A stretch of 32,000 bases of DNA from Candidatus Saccharimonadota bacterium (GTDB taxonomy: Archaea > Micrarchaeota > Micrarchaeia > Micrarchaeales > Micrarchaeaceae): contig OY970071.1 in NCBI GenBank assembly GCA_963705375.1, forward strand, positions 750,001 to 782,000, in the 5' to 3' direction. The position numbers and the translations under genes are program-made. Shown here piece after piece: positions 840 through 26,314 of the stretch (position 1 is the first letter of the stretch; each line of letters opens with the position of its first letter). Below the pieces are notes generated by a model. It was not told where the DNA came from. It worked only from the letters and a program-made list of their open reading frames with translations, and ran no database searches.

Positions 840-911
840 AAGTGCCTATCTGTGTTGAACCTTCAAAGTATTAAAACACATTAATAGGGCCTTTTAAGCC
901 AACAAATTAAT

Positions 912-998
912 TGCGCCAGCCGGGATTTGGACCCGGATCGCTAGCTGTTTCCAATATTATGGGAAGCTAGTATCTTAACCAGGTTGGATCACTGGCGC
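912..998 (-). tRNA. tRNA-Gly(CCC) with a 13-nt intron at canonical position 37/38
   Basis: Hand-folded from the reverse complement: acceptor GCGCCAG/CTGGCGC, discriminator A. D-arm ATCC-AACCTGGTTA-AGAT, anticodon stem CTAGC/GCTAG. After intron removal the loop is TTCCCAA (anticodon CCC). T-arm CCGGG-TCCAAAT-CCCGG. No encoded CCA. G1-C72, C2-G71, G3-C70 fit Gly identity. Confidence 0.8.
947..959 (-). other. tRNA-Gly intron (13 nt, relaxed BHB)
   Basis: Sense strand CTAGC-TTCC-CAT-AATATT-GGAA-ACA-GCTAG. The 4-bp helix TTCC/GGAA lies between the 3' bulge ACA (next to the anticodon stem) and a loop holding the 5' site. Cutting after the 2nd bulge nucleotide removes TAATATTGGAAAC. Confidence 0.7.
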
Positions 999-1160
999 AT
1001 CAAGAGCGATATACTTTTCAGCACTAACATATTTAATCGTGCCAGGGTTTGGCGCATGCACGATGTAGGGGCTATGGGCTAGATCTATAGTGGATGTGTC
1101 TGATCCTGCCTGACATACTTTTTTATTTTAGTGTTCCGCATTATTCCAAAGGTAATTTGT

Positions 1161-5195: not shown

Positions 5196-6077
5196 ATGGC
5201 GCAAAAGCCAATGGGGGTGGAAGTGATAAAGACAGAAACCACGCAAGAGCTTATCGGCAAGCTGCGCAGAGAATTAAAAGGTAAAGCAGTTGGTCTGAAT
5301 TACGGCTTCCTACCAATCAAATATTATAACTTCCTTAAAAAGGAGGTCAAAATACTGAAGACTGTAGATGCTACAGCTTCTCTAACTGCTACAAGAGTGG
5401 TAAAGGATGCAGATGAGATCAAGACGATGTCAGAATGTGCAAGGATTGTCAGACATGCCCTGTCAAAGATAATGCAGTTTGCAAAGGAAGGCATGACCGA
5501 AAGGCAACTCGCGGCCATATTTAACGACATTATGATAAAACGTGGGGCACAAGCCCCGGCATTCAAGACCATAGTTTCATTTGGACGTAATTCCGCATTT
5601 CCCCACCATTTTCCAGATGACACCGTATTAAAGAAGAATGACATAGTCTTGATAGATGCAGGAGCAAAGTACATGAACTATCGTTCTGACATGACCAGGA
5701 CCTTCATATTCGAGCCAGACAGGAAGAGTGCTACTTACAAGCGCATCATAGCCCTGATTGATGTGGTAAAACTTGCTCAAAAGAACGCAATGGCTCTGAT
5801 GAAAGAAGGCACCGTTGGTAAAGAAGTGCATCTCTCTGCAGAAAAAACCATAAACGAGGCAAACGGCGGAATCTACAATCACAAGTTCATACATTCAATA
5901 AGTCATTCCATAGGTTTAGAGACTCATGACGGAGAAGTGCTCAATCGCAACTCTAAACTAGTACTGAAGAGTGGGATGGTTTTCAGCTGCGAGCCTGGAA
6001 TATACCTTCCCGGCTTTGGCGGAGTGAGGATAGAAGATGATGTTCTGATAACAGAAAAAGGCAACAGAATGCTCTAA
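5196..6077 (+). CDS. M24-family Xaa-Pro aminopeptidase/prolidase-like peptidase (minimal ORF; see finding on the start-less N-terminal domain)
   Basis: Pita-bread catalytic motifs are present: [46 protein letters not shown]. The frame stays open upstream. Positions 4980-5195 encode a recognisable creatinase/prolidase N-domain (SKVDALVLVN...NFVYFTCF...LVVKRNHAKLFTTALEYD), but no in-frame ATG, GTG or TTG precedes 5196. Confidence 0.8.
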
Positions 6078-19975: not shown

Positions 19976-19979
19976 TTTG

Positions 19980-21146
19980 ATGCCTTTGCAACTAAGTTTC
20001 GACAAAAAAACAGGAGGCATCTACACAGTAGATCAGTCCACAAAGGATGTGCTGACTAGCGGATACTTTGGAGTTGCTCATGAAGATAGGCTTTCGCTCG
20101 CGCCTGAAGAAGGCCTCTTCTTGATGGATGTTAGGAATGCCGTGTGTGTATCTGCGAAGGAGGAGAAACCTCTGTCTTTCAACGAGATAGCCCAGGAATT
20201 CAGCACGGGAAATAAATTCCTAGCACGCTATTTCACATACAAGGATTGGCGCGATCGTGGACTCATAATAAAAAAGCCGGATCACACCTCTGCCGAAGGG
20301 AGCGTTCTTCCTGTTAAGAGCTATCGCGCCTCAAAACTGAAGCTTAAGGACTATTCAATGGATGGGGTTTTCTTCCCTGCAGACATGATGACGATAGTGG
20401 ATGATGAGGTGCAGGGCAAACTCATCTACGAAGAGCACTGGTTCGGTCAGTATGGGACCTATAAGACCAACGACCATGGCGTGCTGAACAAACTGGACGT
20501 GTATGAAACCCTCTTTCTCATAGACTGCGACGTCCTGCGCATCAAGAACTTCAGCCGCAAAGACATAGCAGAGCTTGCAAGCAAGCGCAGATCCGATTTC
20601 CAGAAGCTCTATGACGTGTACAAGGACTGGCGCAGCCGCGGCTATGTGATCAAGACCGGATTCAAGTTCGGGACCCACTTCCGGGTGTACTTTCCGCAAG
20701 CACAACCGATGAAGAAGGACGAGAGTTGGGTGCATTCGAGGCACGTCATCCATGTATTTCCAAGAGACGCCAAGCTGCTCATATCAGAATGGGCCCGGGT
20801 TATCAGGGTCGCCCATTCTGTAAGGAAAACTTTCATACTTGCGATACCTGGAAAAATCAGGAAGAAGCGCCTTGCGATAGATTTTGTGCTTTATCATAGG
20901 AAGGGCAACGGCATAGAGACTCCAAACACCGGAAGCCCGAGATATGCGATGCTTTCTCTGAGCGAAGAGGAGTATCTTGGCGGCAGCGAACTTTCTGCAA
21001 TAATCAACGATGCAGGAGAGCATAAACTGGAACTTATAATTGCAATCGCAGACAGAGAGACCGCTGTGACATATTATAGGGTCAAGAAGATAGAACTTCA
21101 GGGCAGCGAATACGAGTATTATGAGATAGACTGGATGCAGCCGTAG
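19980..21146 (+). CDS. endA: tRNA-splicing endonuclease, long single-chain form with three EndA-like units
   Basis: 388 aa from ATG 19980. Unit 1 (about aa 1-115) has an N-domain plus YFTYKDWRDRGLIIK but no catalytic residues. Unit 2 (about 120-295) is complete: YDVYKDWRSRGYVIKTGFKFGTHFRVY, HSRHVIHV, AHSVRKTFILA (Tyr/His/Lys). Unit 3 (about 296-389) is a C-domain-like repeat: DFVLYHR...LELIIAIADRETAVTYYRV. Confidence 0.9.
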   Translation: MPLQLSFDKKTGGIYTVDQSTKDVLTSGYFGVAHEDRLSLAPEEGLFLMDVRNAVCVSAKEEKPLSFNEIAQEFSTGNKFLARYFTYKDWRDRGLIIKKPDHTSAEGSVLPVKSYRASKLKLKDYSMDGVFFPADMMTIVDDEVQGKLIYEEHWFGQYGTYKTNDHGVLNKLDVYETLFLIDCDVLRIKNFSRKDIAELASKRRSDFQKLYDVYKDWRSRGYVIKTGFKFGTHFRVYFPQAQPMKKDESWVHSRHVIHVFPRDAKLLISEWARVIRVAHSVRKTFILAIPGKIRKKRLAIDFVLYHRKGNGIETPNTGSPRYAMLSLSEEEYLGGSELSAIINDAGEHKLELIIAIADRETAVTYYRVKKIELQGSEYEYYEIDWMQP

Positions 21147-21461: not shown

Positions 21462-21572
21462 CGGGCCCGGGGGGATTTTCAGAACGCCTAGCTTTTGGCT
21501 GGGCTTTATTTTTTGAACCCCCGACCTACCGGTTAAGAGCCGGCCGCTCTAACCTACCTGAGCCACGGGCCC
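21462..21572 (-). tRNA. tRNA-Lys(CUU) with a 36-nt intron in the T-loop (position 59/60)
   Basis: Hand-folded: acceptor GGGCCCG/CGGGCCC, discriminator G. D-arm GCTC-AGGTAGGTTA-GAGC. Anticodon arm GCCGG-CTCTTAA-CCGGT. Variable loop AGGTC. T-stem GGGGG/CCCCC encloses 43 nt instead of 7. After excision it is 75 nt with T-loop TTCAAAT. No encoded CCA. Confidence 0.85.
21476..21511 (-). other. non-canonical tRNA intron (T-loop, relaxed BHB)
   Basis: Sense strand GGGGG-TTCA-AAA-...-TGAA-AAT-CCCCC. The 4-bp helix TTCA/TGAA has the 3' bulge AAT against the T-stem and an A-rich 5' bulge. An internal hairpin GCC-C-AGC/GCT-A-GGC is present. The A-run makes the exact register ambiguous, but the mature sequence is the same. 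Confidence 0.75.
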
Positions 21573-22179: not shown

Positions 22180-23523
22180 TCATTTCTTGCTTTTCTTAAC
22201 GAAACCATCTATGATGTCGTCAAACTCCGTGCCTTTCGGCTTTAGCTCGTAGCTAACCTGCACTATTGGCTTTGTCACATTTATCAAGCTCCTGAGGTTT
22301 ATGGGGGTTGCAGACACCACTACGTCGCAATCCGCGTTGTTAACAGTGGCTTCCAGGTCACGCACTTCTTTTGGACTGTATCCCATAGCAGGCAGCTCTT
22401 GGTCAAGCTTCGGGAACCTTTCGAACACCTTTTTTATTGAGCCGACTGCATATTTCTTTGCACTGATGATTTCCTTTGCACCATACGTCTCAGCAGCAAC
22501 CCTTCCAGCACCAAACAGCATGTTGCCGTGCGTTATCGTCGGACCGTCCTCTATGGCGAGCACACGTTTTCCCTTTATGATCCTCGGATTGTCCGGAGTG
22601 ATAATGGAGTCTGCATACACTAACTTTGCATTTCTGTTTATGGAACGCAGATTTGTATCCAGTCTTTCCAACTGTTCCTTTGTGGCTGAATTTACCTTGT
22701 TTATCACCAGAACATCCGCCATTCTGACTGACGTCTCTCCCGGATAATATGAAAGCTCATTGCCGACCCTCAAAGGGTCTGCGACTGTTATCAGCAGATC
22801 GGGCTTTATGAACGGCAAGTCATTATTGCCTCCATCCCATAAAACTATATCTGCTTCTTTCTCTGCTTCACTCAAAATCTTGGCGTAGTCCACGCCCGCG
22901 AACACCACAAACTTGTTTTTTATGTGCGGTTCGTATTCTTCCCGCTCTTCTATCGTTGTTTTGTGTTTTTCCAGGTCCTTTAGCGTTTCAAATCTTTGCA
23001 CAATCTGTTCCTTTAACACCCCATAAGGCATCGGATGCCTTATCACTGCTACTTTCAAACCAGCGTTGCGTATGCGGCTTGCTATGTATCTGGACGTCTG
23101 GCTCTTGCCGCTGCCTGTCCGAACTGCGCAGACGGCTATCACGGGTTTGGTCGACTTAAGATAGGTGTGTTCTGGAGCAACAAGCCAAAAATCAGAGCCG
23201 TTTGAGTTCGCTATGCTCGCCTTGTGCATCACCTCCACATCGTCAAGGTCGCTGTATGACTGTACGCACACATCTACCTTGAATTTTTTGATCAACGTGG
23301 GCAATTCCGACTCATCAAATATATTTATGCCATCAGGATATAGCGTACCTGCAAGCTCTTTCGGATACATACGGTTAGATATGTAGGGTATCTGCGCCGC
23401 GGTAAACGCTACCACTTCGTATTCGCCATTATCCCTGAACAGCATGTTGAAGTTATGGAAAGCGCGGATCTATGCAGACCTATCGCGTCCTGCTGCCCCG
23501 ATAACGATGACCTTTTTTGCCAT
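22180..23523 (-). CDS. COG2403-family P-loop protein (often annotated predicted GTPase or cyclic 2,3-diphosphoglycerate synthetase-like), interrupted by a 21-nt BHB intron candidate
   Basis: ORF 22180..23445 carries the family body: FRDNGEYEVVAFTAAQIP, AVRTGSGKSQTS, IRHPMPYG, TIEEREEYEPH, LWDGGNND. The same frame continues upstream through one TAG (23470-23472) to ATG 23523 (MAKKVIVIGAAGRD), which has a GGTGA Shine-Dalgarno 6 nt upstream. If 23461..23481 is removed the product is 440 aa. Confidence 0.85.
23461..23481 (-). other. candidate BHB (endonuclease-type) intron in mRNA, 21 nt, contains in-frame TAG
   Basis: Sense strand GGA-CGCG-ATA-GGTCT-GCAT-AGATC-CGCG-CTT-TCC. Outer helix GGA/TCC, 3' bulge CTT, central 4-bp helix CGCG/CGCG, 5' bulge ATA, inner 5-bp helix GGTCT/AGATC, loop GCAT. 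Cutting after the 2nd nucleotide of each bulge excises AGGTCTGCATAGATCCGCGCT and joins ...CGC GAT|TTC CAT.... Confidence 0.65.
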
Positions 23524-23529
23524 ATCATT

Positions 23530-23534
23530 TCACC
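23530..23534 (-). promoter_or_regulatory. Shine-Dalgarno (GGTGA) for exon 1 of the COG2403 gene
   Basis: Minus strand ...AAATGGTGAAATGAT-ATG. There are 6 nt between GGTGA and ATG 23523. No comparable element precedes ATG 23445. Confidence 0.5.
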
Positions 23535-23692
23535 ATTTCAATCATATTCACCTAGGAATATACAAACTTTATATCTTCCGAATTTTTAGAACGCGCTTGC
23601 TTATGCATTGGCATCGCTTCTGTATCGTAAAGAACAGACAATCTAAAGACGCCTGTATTGCTATCAAGCTTCGTAAATGCGCACATTCCGAA

Positions 23693-23731: not shown

Positions 23732-26314
23732 ATGCATGGGAAAACTAAGAGATCTCAATCTGCCATGGAGTATCTCATGACGTACGGCTGGGCGATTCTG
23801 GTTATTGCTGTCGTACTTGCTTCTCTGTTTGGGTTGGGCGTGTTCAACAGCGGTACTTCTGTAGTCGGCACCTCCTGTTCATCACGTATCGGCTATCTGT
23901 GCAGCAATCCAGTCCTGCTTTCTAACGGTCTGTTGTCCACAACAATAGGCTCTTCACAGCCGATAACTGTTACCGGTGTCGCATGTTCTAGCGGTTCTTC
24001 CTCACCGTCAAGTTTCAGCTCTGCGAATATAGCTCTCGCTGCAGGCGCACAGCAGAATGTCGACTTCCCCTGCTCACTATCTTCAAATGCGCTGGGCACG
24101 CCTTTCGCAGGAACATTATGGATGCAGTACGCGCAGAACGGCCAAACTGGTCTTGTGACGCAGGTTGCATCGGTGAATGCCAAGGTCGCTGCCTTTGGTT
24201 CTGGAGGTGGAGGCGGTGGTACTACGACCGTAGGAACTACAACCATAGGAACTACGACCACACCCTCATCATCCACATACTCTTTCTCTGCGACAGCAGG
24301 ATCTGGAGGCTCAGTGTCGTGCCGTTCTTCAGGCTCTACAATACCATGCACTGGAAACTACGCAGCAGGAAACACAATCACGATTAACGCGATACCGAAT
24401 TCGGGCAATACATTCAACTACTGGACAGGTACGTGCGCAGGTTCAAATCCATGCACGTTCACAATGCCCGCAAATGCAGTTGATGATTCTGCGAGCTTCT
24501 TTGCGACGTCATCATCAGCACAGTATGTGGCGCAGTTCGACGGAGAGAGTGGTGCCATCAGTACAGGAACGACTGATTTCCCTTTCACCACAGGCTCTCC
24601 AAATTCGTTCTTCACTTGGGTCTATGTGGGCGCAACTCAGGGCCTTTCTGCTCTATTTATTTATGGTGGAAGTGGTGGAAATGGTCCAGAAGCGATAGCC
24701 CTGAATGTCTCATCTACTCATGCAAGATTGGACTATCCGGATGGGGCTGATTATGAAGCTGCGCCGTTCACACTTAATTCATGGCATTTTGTAGGTTTCA
24801 CATATGATGGCGGAACAACGGTCAACTTATACGTAGATGGCGGCTCTCCAGAAACGTACACAAACGTACGGCAACAAGATGTAGGAACTAATCCGTCTTT
24901 TATAGCATATATCGGAGGTGTGGGTGCTCCAGTGTATGGTTATTACACACAAGGTTACATGTCAGATGCCCAGTTCTACGCCACAGAGCTTTCGTCAAGC
25001 AAGGTGCACGCCCTGTATACTGAGGGCATGGGTGGTACTGCAATGCCTGCATCTGACTTGGTGGGCTGGTGGCAACTGAACAACAACGCGAATGATTATA
25101 GCGGAAATGGCAACACGGGCACTCCGTCGTCAGGCGTTACCTTTGTTACAATTGCAAACGTCATTCCTTTGAGTCAGATAACATACGCTTTCTCAGCAAC
25201 TCCTGGCTCTGGTGGTTCGGTGTCGTGCCGTTCTTCAGGGTCGACGATACCTTGCACCGGAAACTATGCTGCAGGAAACACCATTACTCTTAATGCAATA
25301 CCAAGCTCGGGCTATGCATTCGACAGCTGGACAGGGACTTATTCAAACAGCCTTAATCCCTGGACGCTTACACTCCCTGCAAATGCGGTTACTGAGACTG
25401 CAAACTTCATTTTGACAACACCTCAGTTGCGCACAATAGCCACAGGGCAGGTCGCTCCGATGAGTGTAGTGGTCGACAGCAGCGGCAACGTCTACTGGGG
25501 TGGGGAAGGGGGTAATATAAAGGAGCTGCCAAGCGGCCTATCCGGCAACGACAATATCATAACGGTTGCATCTGGACAATCCAACCCGAATTATGTTGCA
25601 GTTGGCGATGGCAACATCTACTGGATAAATTTGGGCTTTTCAGACACCACCAATGTGGTGGAATACAATTCAGGAAGCCTCTGGACGGGTACAGGAACTC
25701 CTTTGGCATTAGCAGCAGGCAACAGCAAAGTCTACTGGTCATACTGGCCTTACTCTGGAGACAGCAGCCTCATGGAGTATCCTGGCGGCACGCTCTACAC
25801 GGCACATGATGTCCAGCCCTCTAGCATAGTGGTCAGCAACGGCAACATCTACTGGACTGATCCAAGTGCTATTAGGGAGTACACCTCAGGAAGCGTCGTA
25901 ACGCTTGCGACAGGACAGGACAGCCCTAGATCGGTAGCTGTAGACAGCAGCGGCAACGTCTACTGGGCGAATGACGGTTCTTACCCCAACGTTGGCACCA
26001 TCATGGAACTGCCCAGCGGGAAGATTGGAAACGCCAATGTCATAACGCTTGCGTCGGGGCTGAACCAGCCAGGTGCTTGTTGTGGTTCTGGCTTTGGAAT
26101 TGGAACGGCAGTTACTAATGGCAACGTCTATTGGATTACAGATGACTCGGAAGGCCACGCAAGTCTCGTGCAGGAGATGCCAAGCGGTATGTCAGGCAAC
26201 GACAATGTCATAACAATTGCATCTGGACAGAACTACGCAGATAGTATAGCGGCAATCAACGGCAAGGTATACTGGGCAAACCTAAACGACGGTACCATTA
26301 TGGAGTATTCGTGA
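23732..26314 (+). CDS. large secreted/surface protein with class III (type IV pilin-like) signal peptide, two B-repeat-like domains, a LamG-like domain and a 7-repeat beta-propeller
   Basis: 860 aa. The leader MHGKTKRS|QSAMEYLMTYGWAILVIAVVLASLF has basic residues, Ser at -1, Gln at +1, Glu at +5 and a hydrophobic helix. A Gly/Thr linker spans aa 156-180. B-repeat-like modules are aa 183-250 and 485-553. The LamG-like core is aa about 262-435 (FDG...WHFVGFTYDG...LYVDG...ELSSSKVHALY). Seven G-N-[VI]-Y-W ... [IV]-x-E-[YLM]-x-S-G units span aa about 565-860. Confidence 0.85.
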   Translation: MHGKTKRSQSAMEYLMTYGWAILVIAVVLASLFGLGVFNSGTSVVGTSCSSRIGYLCSNPVLLSNGLLSTTIGSSQPITVTGVACSSGSSSPSSFSSANIALAAGAQQNVDFPCSLSSNALGTPFAGTLWMQYAQNGQTGLVTQVASVNAKVAAFGSGGGGGGTTTVGTTTIGTTTTPSSSTYSFSATAGSGGSVSCRSSGSTIPCTGNYAAGNTITINAIPNSGNTFNYWTGTCAGSNPCTFTMPANAVDDSASFFATSSSAQYVAQFDGESGAISTGTTDFPFTTGSPNSFFTWVYVGATQGLSALFIYGGSGGNGPEAIALNVSSTHARLDYPDGADYEAAPFTLNSWHFVGFTYDGGTTVNLYVDGGSPETYTNVRQQDVGTNPSFIAYIGGVGAPVYGYYTQGYMSDAQFYATELSSSKVHALYTEGMGGTAMPASDLVGWWQLNNNANDYSGNGNTGTPSSGVTFVTIANVIPLSQITYAFSATPGSGGSVSCRSSGSTIPCTGNYAAGNTITLNAIPSSGYAFDSWTGTYSNSLNPWTLTLPANAVTETANFILTTPQLRTIATGQVAPMSVVVDSSGNVYWGGEGGNIKELPSGLSGNDNIITVASGQSNPNYVAVGDGNIYWINLGFSDTTNVVEYNSGSLWTGTGTPLALAAGNSKVYWSYWPYSGDSSLMEYPGGTLYTAHDVQPSSIVVSNGNIYWTDPSAIREYTSGSVVTLATGQDSPRSVAVDSSGNVYWANDGSYPNVGTIMELPSGKIGNANVITLASGLNQPGACCGSGFGIGTAVTNGNVYWITDDSEGHASLVQEMPSGMSGNDNVITIASGQNYADSIAAINGKVYWANLNDGTIMEYS
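24221..24259 (+). repeat. 15-nt tandem repeat (about 2.6 copies) encoding the Thr-rich linker
   Basis: ACTACGACC / GTAGGAACTACAACC / ATAGGAACTACGACC encodes TTT-VGTTT-IGTTT. Confidence 0.7.
24278..24481 (+). repeat. intragenic duplicated module, copy 1 (B-repeat-like domain)
   Basis: YSFSATAGSGGSVSCRSSGSTIPCTGNYAAGNTITINAIPNSGNTFNYWTGT... The DNA shares an identical 20-mer GTGTCGTGCCGTTCTTCAGG (24314-24333) with copy 2. Confidence 0.8.
25184..25390 (+). repeat. intragenic duplicated module, copy 2 (B-repeat-like domain)
   Basis: YAFSATPGSGGSVSCRSSGSTIPCTGNYAAGNTITLNAIPSSGYAFDSWTGT... The identical 20-mer is at 25220-25239. Confidence 0.8.
25424..26311 (+). repeat. seven tandem propeller-blade repeats (about 40-55 aa each)
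   Basis: The hYW motif occurs seven times, at about aa 587, 629, 667, 706, 743, 799 and 846. Each is followed by h-x-E-h-x-S/G-G. The first and last units also share near-identical DNA (GGCAACGACAAT[AG]TCATAAC..TTGCATCTGGACA). Confidence 0.75.

Follow-up and report, generated by a model that had tools for sequence, protein, structure and literature searches.

The window analysed here is a stretch of 32,000 nt (contig OY970071.1 of assembly GCA_963705375.1, positions 750,001 to 782,000 of the forward strand) from a member of the Micrarchaeota that is a relative of ARMAN-2. On its minus strand lies a gene of the COG2403 type, encoding a P-loop protein, whose reading frame is interrupted close to its 5' end by 21 nt (23481..23461). 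A preliminary description of this DNA had proposed an archaeal bulge-helix-bulge (BHB) intron at this place, in a genome that it called "Thermoplasmata- or ARMAN-like"; the kinship with ARMAN-2 bears out the second of these names and not the first. The features of the interrupted gene are the following, where the motif in the fourth line is given as outer helix, bulge, central helix, bulge and inner helix (hBHBh') and the vertical stroke is the predicted cut.

23482..23523, minus strand: exon 1, ATG plus 13 codons, MAKKVIVIGAAGRD, in agreement with the conserved COG2403-type N-terminus
23461..23481, 21 nt, minus strand: predicted BHB intron, AGGUCUGCAUAGAUCCGCGCU, missing from intronless homologues
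22180..23460, minus strand: exon 2, beginning FHNFNMLFRDNG, with the stop TGA at 22182-22180
23457..23490, minus strand: full hBHBh' motif, GGA-CGCG-[AU|A]-GGUCU-GCAU-AGAUC-CGCG-[CU|U]-UCC
23530..23534, minus strand: Shine-Dalgarno-like GGTGA, 6 nt 5' of ATG 23523
23567..23580, minus strand: putative TFB recognition element (BRE)/TATA box, cggAAGATATAAAG, 44-57 nt 5' of the exon-1 ATG, a sequence pattern only

An interrupted gene of the COG2403 type

Exon 1 starts at ATG 23523-23521 and runs for 14 codons including the ATG (ATG gca aaa aag gtc atc gtt atc ggg gca gca gga cgc gat), after which the 21-nt insert reads agg tct gca TAG atc cgc gct, with its in-frame TAG at 23472-23470, and the frame resumes with ttc cat aac ttc aac atg ctg. 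The interruption thus follows codon 14 (Asp) and precedes codon 15 (Phe), and the open reading frame (ORF) that is called here, 23445..22180 (-) with 421 codons, opens at an ATG inside exon 2. On a reading of the minus strand, everything that the preliminary description had said of the start, the insert, the TAG and the called ORF is correct. Joining exon 1 to exon 2 in silico gives a COG2403-type P-loop protein of 440 aa. The RNA junction predicted for the spliced form is ...GGACGCGAU|UUCCAUAAC..., 21 nt shorter than the unspliced one, and its product would contain the junction peptide VIVIGAAGRDFHNFNMLFR, whereas a truncated form would begin with MLFRDNGEYEVVAFTAAQIPYISNR at Met-20 (ATG 23445). 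Unspliced RNA can only yield a peptide of 17 residues or, at best, an N-terminally truncated protein.

A protein search with the spliced translation returns thousands of homologues. In a listing of the best 120, which served to check the N-terminus, the full-length proteins read (I/L/M)GAAG(R/K)D(F/Y)xxxN, and nearly all homologues of full length run GAAGRD-FHNFN uninterrupted. The family N-terminus GAAGRDFHNFN given in the preliminary description is therefore right, and the 21 nt are extra relative to the family as had been claimed.

Exon 1 itself evolves as coding sequence: when its 14 codons are compared pairwise within the clade formed by the window and the loci L001, L002, L003 and L085, the differences over all pairs are mostly synonymous (34 against 15 non-synonymous), and the non-synonymous ones concern residue 2 or are V/I/L exchanges. 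The Shine-Dalgarno-like site described upstream of it is seen at 23534-23530 and has nothing comparable upstream of ATG 23445; L001 and L002 have GGTGG where the window has GGTGA, and L003 and L085 are without a clear match. The TATA-like element that had also been described is AGATATAAAG at 23576-23567 (-). It aligns with a conserved box, for in a side-by-side comparison of the upstream regions L001-L003 and L085 share AAAAAGATTTATAG (L002 with ATAT for ATTT), and the counterpart in the window is AAGATATAAAG, 44-54 nt before the ATG. The presumed internal start, in turn, is GTG in L001, at the family's Val/Met position.

The predicted bulge-helix-bulge intron and its counterparts

In the window, the motif consists of an outer helix GGA/UCC of 3 bp, a central helix CGCG/CGCG of 4 bp and an inner helix GGUCU/AGAUC of 5 bp, with two 3-nt bulges, AUA and CUU, on opposite strands and 4 bp apart. 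The 5' strands of the outer and central helices, together with nucleotides 1 and 2 of the 5' bulge, are supplied by the final 9 nt of exon 1 (GGACGCGAU). The intron contributes the inner hairpin, the CGCG that forms the 3' strand of the central helix, and two of the nucleotides in the 3' bulge. The centroid structure computed with RNAfold reproduces the central helix and the GGUCU/AGAUC hairpin together with the 5' bulge. Cutting in silico after the second nucleotide of both bulges joins GAU|UUC, that is GRD|FHNFN as in the uninterrupted homologues, and takes the stop codon away, exactly as the preliminary description had predicted. Its strict hBHBh' geometry and its cut rule stand as well, the same rule being given for cbf5, in whose BHB the predicted cuts lie between the second and third bulge residues (Yokobori 2009, PMC2738675). 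The intron borders may be shifted by 1 nt upstream, with an identical spliced product.

It is the comparative data rather than this lone motif that decide the case. The six nearest relatives among database proteins, at 74-100 % identity, have all been called with 421-426 aa from MLFRDN, truncated like the window's own, and the DNA of three of them (L001-L003) has in each case a 21-nt insert at the same boundary. A comparison of orthologues, for presence or absence of the insert and for compensatory change, had been proposed as a check, and on both counts it agrees with an intron. L001-L003 and L085 carry the insert, and relatives at 86-89 % protein identity are without it. Within the inner helix a G·U pair has become G-C in L001, where both bulges are altered and the flanking codons are changed synonymously (GAC|TTT), and a C-G pair has become U-A in L003, which has TAA in place of TAG; L002 has lost one inner pair. 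In L085 the intron measures 18 nt (loop AUA) as compared to 21 nt in the window, L001 and L002, indicating that within one clade the loop gathers indels while the BHB stays.

Beyond this clade, metagenomes were scanned with the pattern GGACGNGAY-N{10,40}-TTYCANRAYTWYAAYNTNYTNTTYMG, which prescribes exon codons only and leaves the sequence of the insert free. This yielded 31 loci, all of them COG2403 genes reading GAAGRD|insert|FHNFN; a further match, L039, was without BHB and was discarded as chance. In total there are 36 independent loci with an insert of 18-37 nt at the same Asp|Phe boundary. The TAG and the length of 21 nt, to which the preliminary description had drawn attention, are thus real but incidental features of the window, because the lengths found are 18, 20, 21, 22, 23, 24, 27, 29, 30, 31, 32 and 37 nt, most of which are not multiples of 3 and would throw the ribosome out of frame, so that such inserts cannot be passed by read-through. 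After excision in silico, every locus that is not cut by a contig end has an intact ORF of 430-498 aa, where the upper lengths (to 498 aa) include an upstream in-frame extension introduced by a crude start rule. In each of the 35 loci analysed, the central helix is paired in 4/4 positions and the outer helix in at least 3; in 34 of them an inner helix of 2-13 bp adjoins the bulge, with sequences that are unrelated between lineages. The central helix is likewise complete (4/4) in L120 from Caldarchaeum, whose 23-nt intron lies in the arrangement GGA CGCG aca GAGC uugaaaaa GCUC CGCG aau UCC.

Covariation was scored on 28-nt cores, of which there are 26 distinct sequences. Overall, 99.0 % of cells pair, and sliding the partner by 1-3 columns lowers this to 25-55 %; pairing amounts to 100 % in the central helix and 97 % in the inner helix. 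Cells with a double change number 45, a value equalled in none of 500 shuffles, and all four scored pairs of the inner helix show compensatory changes. The exon Arg codon takes part as well, its wobble base pairing with the intron (U-A 14, C-G 10 and U-G 2). The search pattern had left the intron strand and the inner helix free, and GGG and AGR codons lie outside it; L001-L003 and L120, found via their proteins and hence independently of the pattern, have the same architecture. At the DNA level, 81 intronless junctions read GGN-(CGN/AGR)-GAY|TTY with nothing between; their source was a contig search with the spliced protein, in which all matches, among those listed, were intronless and at most 70 % identical.

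Several observations weigh against an intron, or at least lessen the force of the case. The minimum-free-energy structure of RNAfold pairs the outer segment otherwise, and the fold energy is not unusual against the background (z = +0.42). A scan of both strands of the window found 10 BHB-like motifs, whereas 30 dinucleotide shuffles gave 12.3 ± 3.3, and at such a chance count the argument from a single sequence is weak by itself; the scan asked for 3 bp in the outer helix, 4 Watson-Crick pairs in the central helix, 3 nt in each of the two bulges and 4 bp or more in the inner helix. Among the comparative loci, the inner helix of L093 can be formed only with one mismatch at its base, and a simple parser finds an inner helix of just 2 bp in L106. 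The search pattern (GGAC..G..GAY / TTYC) had preset the outer helix and, in the central helix, three of the four exon bases, so that the conservation of these columns is ascertained and does not count as separate evidence. No RtcB gene was found among the ORFs of the window that were scanned by Pfam, namely all but five of those with 180 aa or more, together with two shorter ones. Finally, the whole case is built on the comparison of DNA. On the other side, the odds that a chance motif falls on one given position and length are about 1e-5, an order-of-magnitude estimate that assumes some 12 motifs by chance over 64,000 strand positions, with 49 lengths allowed. A motif that brackets exactly the 21 extra nt, together with its comparative conservation, is far above chance. 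We therefore regard it as very probable that the 21 nt are an archaeal BHB intron interrupting the COG2403-type gene, and we infer that they are removed by splicing.

Nine other loose hBHBh' fits in the window, at 5747(+), 17138(+), 17447(+), 27181(+), 19866(-), 17086(-), 15487(-), 8337(-) and 5911(-), would imply introns of 21-51 nt; their number is as expected from shuffles.

Distribution, annotation and alternative explanations

The intron is confined neither to the genome of the window nor to its clade. One group of carriers (L095, L107 and L108) belongs to Candidatus Caldarchaeum within the Caldarchaeales, and another, that of L096, sits within the Micrarchaeota near Bilamarchaeum, while the groups of L084, L086/L104, L100/L101, L099, L106 and L109 have about 60 % identity to every labelled locus alike; such groups include two on contigs of 1.37-1.47 Mb. 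Carriers are 48-59 % identical to the window's protein, as compared to 66-77 % for intronless homologues from Micrarchaeota, and in exon 2 the proteins of carriers are 48-88 % identical to one another. The differences between presence and absence can be very recent: intron-bearing L003 and intronless P0017 share 86 % protein identity, and L096 and intronless P0243 share 89 %. Such empty sites read GGG CGT GAC|TTT and GGG AGA GAT|TTT, and the exon half of the BHB is not kept. In a rough neighbor-joining (NJ) tree of 383 sequences, the 62 carriers form 20 clades made up of carriers only, and the Fitch minimum is 20 changes; the clade count is inflated by error in the tree. The largest of these clades is that of the Caldarchaeales with 19 sequences, which has no intronless member among its close matches. 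As judged from these sequences, the distribution is clearly patchy and implies many losses, many gains, or transfer.

From about 20 clades in both DPANN (two lineages of Micrarchaeota) and TACK (Caldarchaeales), the intronless sisters at 86-89 % identity and the unrelated inner sequences, one might suppose that introns were gained again and again, or transferred, at a preferred site of the mRNA. This would be compatible with site-specific mobility, either by reversal of the EndA and RtcB reactions or by recombination with intron-bearing alleles. Alternatively, splicing might gate the synthesis of the P-loop enzyme according to the state of the tRNA-splicing machinery, which would be compatible with an archaeal counterpart of HAC1/XBP1. 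We consider these suggestions, taken together, as tentative and rather unlikely.

The intron also leaves its traces in public annotation. In the wider listing of 360 homologues, 46 are without an intact GAAGRD and about 36 of these 46 look disrupted by an intron. Many such proteins begin with "...(H/R)(E/D)FHNFN", which is the 3' end of the intron, C(A/G)CG-A(A/T), read in the frame of exon 2, and starts of this kind indicate that public annotation truncates the genes or gives them false N-termini. Members from Caldarchaeum are found in NCBI as a "GTP-binding protein" of 403-404 aa (e.g., MEM1941100.1 and MDJ0273358.1). Dozens of public records of the family are N-terminally truncated (403-426 aa) or start within the intron ("...LAHEFHNFN", "LKKLREFHNFN"), among them P0121-P0135, P0241, P0248, P0267, P0285, P0292-P0298, P0309 and P0314 (NCBI accessions including MEM0440531.1), and none of the affected records is flagged as interrupted.

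These same gene calls are what speaks for another explanation, in which the insert stays in the RNA and the gene is expressed from ATG 23445 as a truncated protein of 421 aa, the 14 codons upstream being a decaying remnant. The ORF 23445..22180 is intact and identical to the public gene call (P0001), relatives are called alike, and all public annotations take the gene in this way. However, no motif in the N-terminal part of the family is better conserved than the segment that would be missing, and exon 1 is in frame, changes mostly synonymously and has its own conserved promoter box and Shine-Dalgarno sequence. Distant carriers have Val, Leu or Ile at the position of the internal ATG, and there gene callers start at least 30 residues further inward (403-409 aa) or inside the intron. 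Since, moreover, a remnant would not preserve a covarying BHB in 36 loci, we judge this explanation very improbable. Even smaller is the probability that we give to a solution at the level of translation, that is to stop-codon read-through, frameshifting or ribosomal bypassing, of which T4 gene 60 is an example, in place of splicing. With its in-frame length of 21 nt, its single UAG and its hairpin, the insert of the window superficially resembles some recoding sites, but L003 has UAA for UAG, most inserts, in the range of 18-37 nt, have a length that is not divisible by 3, and the conserved BHB includes a helix between exon and intron that no known recoding signal requires. Matched take-off and landing codons are absent as well: the sole GAU in the insert resumes in a frame that ends in UAA within a few codons, and bypassing was rejected because no pair of take-off and landing codons restores the frame, just as pyrrolysine-type recoding of UAG was rejected in view of the UAA of L003.

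No greater chance can be granted to a pseudogene or an artefact of assembly or sequencing, i.e., to a small palindromic insertion that kills the gene. It is true that the frame is formally broken and that small hairpin insertions occur as footprints of mobile elements. But the same interruption, with varying sequence, is found in 36 independent assemblies (ENA, Logan, JGI and NCBI), exon 2 is intact and its protein is conserved among carriers to the extent given above, and the absence of intronless members among the close matches of the Caldarchaeales clade indicates that there the interrupted gene is the working copy.

For a spliced intron, the sequences suggest the following course, in which cleavage and ligation, like any regulatory role, are predictions. 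The promoter upstream of ATG 23523 would drive transcription, and in the pre-mRNA the exon segment GGA-CGCG would pair with the CGCG of the intron and the UCC of the second exon. This pairing would produce two 3-nt bulges around a 4-bp helix, capped by the 5-bp hairpin of the intron. The cell's own splicing endonuclease, of the ε2 type and encoded at 19977-21146, would cut after the second nucleotide of each bulge, and a ligase of the RtcB type would join ...CGCGAU to UUCCAU..., the 21-mer probably being circularised. The spliced mRNA would then encode the full protein of 440 aa with the N-terminus GAAGRDFHNFN.

With regard to the function of this protein, sources label it "predicted GTPase" or "cyclic 2,3-diphosphoglycerate synthase" (cDPGS), and NCBI calls many of its homologues cDPGS. 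The spliced protein matches the solved cDPGS 9sxb distantly and in the C-terminal half (residues 212-421 only, 34 bits, E 1.4e-7), a Pfam search of the host protein gives a weak cobW match only, and an NCBIfam search of the spliced protein at 1e-5 found no family match. These matches hint that the name cDPGS may be over-extended for this family.

Relation to known introns, splicing machinery and neighbouring genes

In the open-access papers and bioRxiv preprints searched, no paper links the COG2403 gene family to an intron. This is in line with the preliminary description, whose author was not aware of one for this gene family or in a Thermoplasmata- or ARMAN-like genome. Schwarz et al. (2020, PMC7714728) name cbf5 as the only additional BHB intron reported earlier and add an intron in the 5' untranslated region (5' UTR) of HVO_1309. 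A review of 2023 counts these two, cbf5 and the HVO_1309 5' UTR, and expects further mRNA introns, and papers on EndA of 2018 and 2025, including work on ARMAN-2, cite cbf5 alone for pre-mRNA.

The COG2403 intron resembles the cbf5 intron (Watanabe 2002; Yoshinari 2006; Yokobori 2009, PMC2738675) in its working but is outside the cbf5 family. In both cases a short intron lies within an archaeal protein ORF, has a BHB at its borders with a conserved exon-pairing part and a variable interior, is lineage-specific with secondary loss, and is mis-predicted by annotation pipelines. Whereas cbf5 is the pseudouridine synthase of Desulfurococcales and Sulfolobales, the gene considered here is a COG2403 P-loop gene of Micrarchaeota (DPANN) and Caldarchaeales. 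Its motif is a strict canonical hBHBh', while most cbf5 introns have an "unconventional" relaxed BHB that is thought to need the (αβ)2 enzyme, and in contrast to the (αβ)2 type proposed for cbf5 the endonuclease in the window is of the ε2 type. Also, the roughly 20 carrier clades of the NJ tree differ from the one gain and about two losses of cbf5. Splicing of cbf5 is backed by cDNA and in vitro work; the intron described here is known from DNA.

HVO_1309 of Haloferax volcanii (Schwarz 2020, PMC7714728) is likewise an mRNA substrate of the splicing endonuclease outside the Crenarchaeota, but its intron of 46 nt lies in the 5' UTR and leaves the ORF uninterrupted, and the evidence comes from circular-RNA sequencing (circRNA-seq) and cleavage in vitro. 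Introns of tRNA genes, e.g., that of tRNA-Gly(CCC) in the window, share the hBHBh' motif, the cut rule and presumably EndA and RtcB, at a size of 13 nt as compared to 21 nt. The host RNA here, however, is an mRNA, and the exons contribute their half of the motif through the codons of Gly-Arg-Asp|Phe-His, whose nucleotides are thus constrained by the protein and by the RNA structure at once.

A more remote parallel, to be taken as an analogy only, is offered by HAC1/XBP1, which are processed by IRE1 and an RNA ligase, and by "SOS splicing", where an mRNA is also cut by an endonuclease guided by structure and ligated without a spliceosome, with the result that its reading frame is restored or altered. 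SOS splicing removes transposons from the mRNAs of animals and RtcB acts there (PMC12779559), and XBP1 is ligated by RtcB in metazoans and HAC1 by the tRNA ligase Trl1 in yeast, where RtcB is able to take the place of Trl1 in vivo (Tanaka et al., 2011). The nuclease and the motif are different in those systems, and they serve regulation or defence, whereas no such role is shown here.

From 2002 onward, cbf5 of some Crenarchaeota had been the one BHB intron known within an archaeal ORF. The COG2403 intron would be the second, independent family of BHB introns that interrupts an ORF in Archaea, in another gene and in other phyla, with one host being a DPANN lineage that has the unusual ε2 endonuclease. 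Since its motif is canonical, any type of archaeal EndA could process it, which weakens the proposed link between mRNA introns and the (αβ)2 enzyme. The patchy distribution, with its very recent differences in presence and absence, offers a tractable system for the gain and loss of introns in protein genes of prokaryotes, and exposes a systematic error of annotation, as in the "GTP-binding proteins" of 403 aa from Caldarchaeum. More mRNA introns could come to light by a general strategy that this case suggests, namely homology-guided detection of short inserts combined with a check of BHB geometry.

The enzyme to which cutting of the BHB is ascribed here is encoded 2.3 kb from the intron.

19977..21146, plus strand: gene for an ε2-type (three-unit) RNA-splicing endonuclease, the putative BHB-cutting enzyme

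Its product matches tRNA_int_endo (PF01974, 2.9e-29) and tRNA_int_endo_N (PF02778, 7.4e-11) in Pfam, and it aligns over its full length with the structure of ARMAN-2 EndA (4fz2, E 1.7e-165, residues 3-389 against 2-387), an enzyme whose purification has been published. Endonucleases of the ε2 type cleave both strict and relaxed BHB motifs in vitro (PMC3239211) and are reported, in the literature consulted, from ARMAN-1, ARMAN-2 and Mancarchaeum only. The gene order RadA, diphthine-synthase-like methylase, EndA, acylphosphatase and COG2403 is conserved in L001 and in the contig of P0005.

No tRNA was detected in the window by ARAGORN at default settings or by Rfam at the gathering threshold, but two that contain introns came up once ARAGORN was run in intron mode and Rfam at E <= 1, indicating that the splicing system is in use. 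tRNA-Gly(CCC) at 911-999 (-), detected solely by ARAGORN in intron mode, has a 13-nt intron after position 37 with the central helix UUCC/GGAA. This is the 37/38 intron on which the cut rule had been calibrated, and both of its cuts do fall after the second bulge nucleotide. The other gene, tRNA-Lys(CUU) at about 21462-21572 (-), lies between the acylphosphatase and COG2403 genes and carries about 36 inserted nt within its T-loop (GGGGG-UUCAAAA...intron...AU-CCCCC), a non-canonical site; its Rfam score is 23.7 bits against a gathering threshold of 29.

Divergently from the COG2403 gene, 23732-26314 (+) encodes a protein of 860 aa, whose N-terminus resembles an archaeal class III (pilin-like) signal, QSAMEYLMTYGWAILVI. 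It has Thr/Gly-rich linkers, two Flg_new_2 (InlB B-repeat-like) domains and "NGN(V/I)YW" repeats at the C-terminus, and to judge from these features it is probably associated with the cell surface or with pili.

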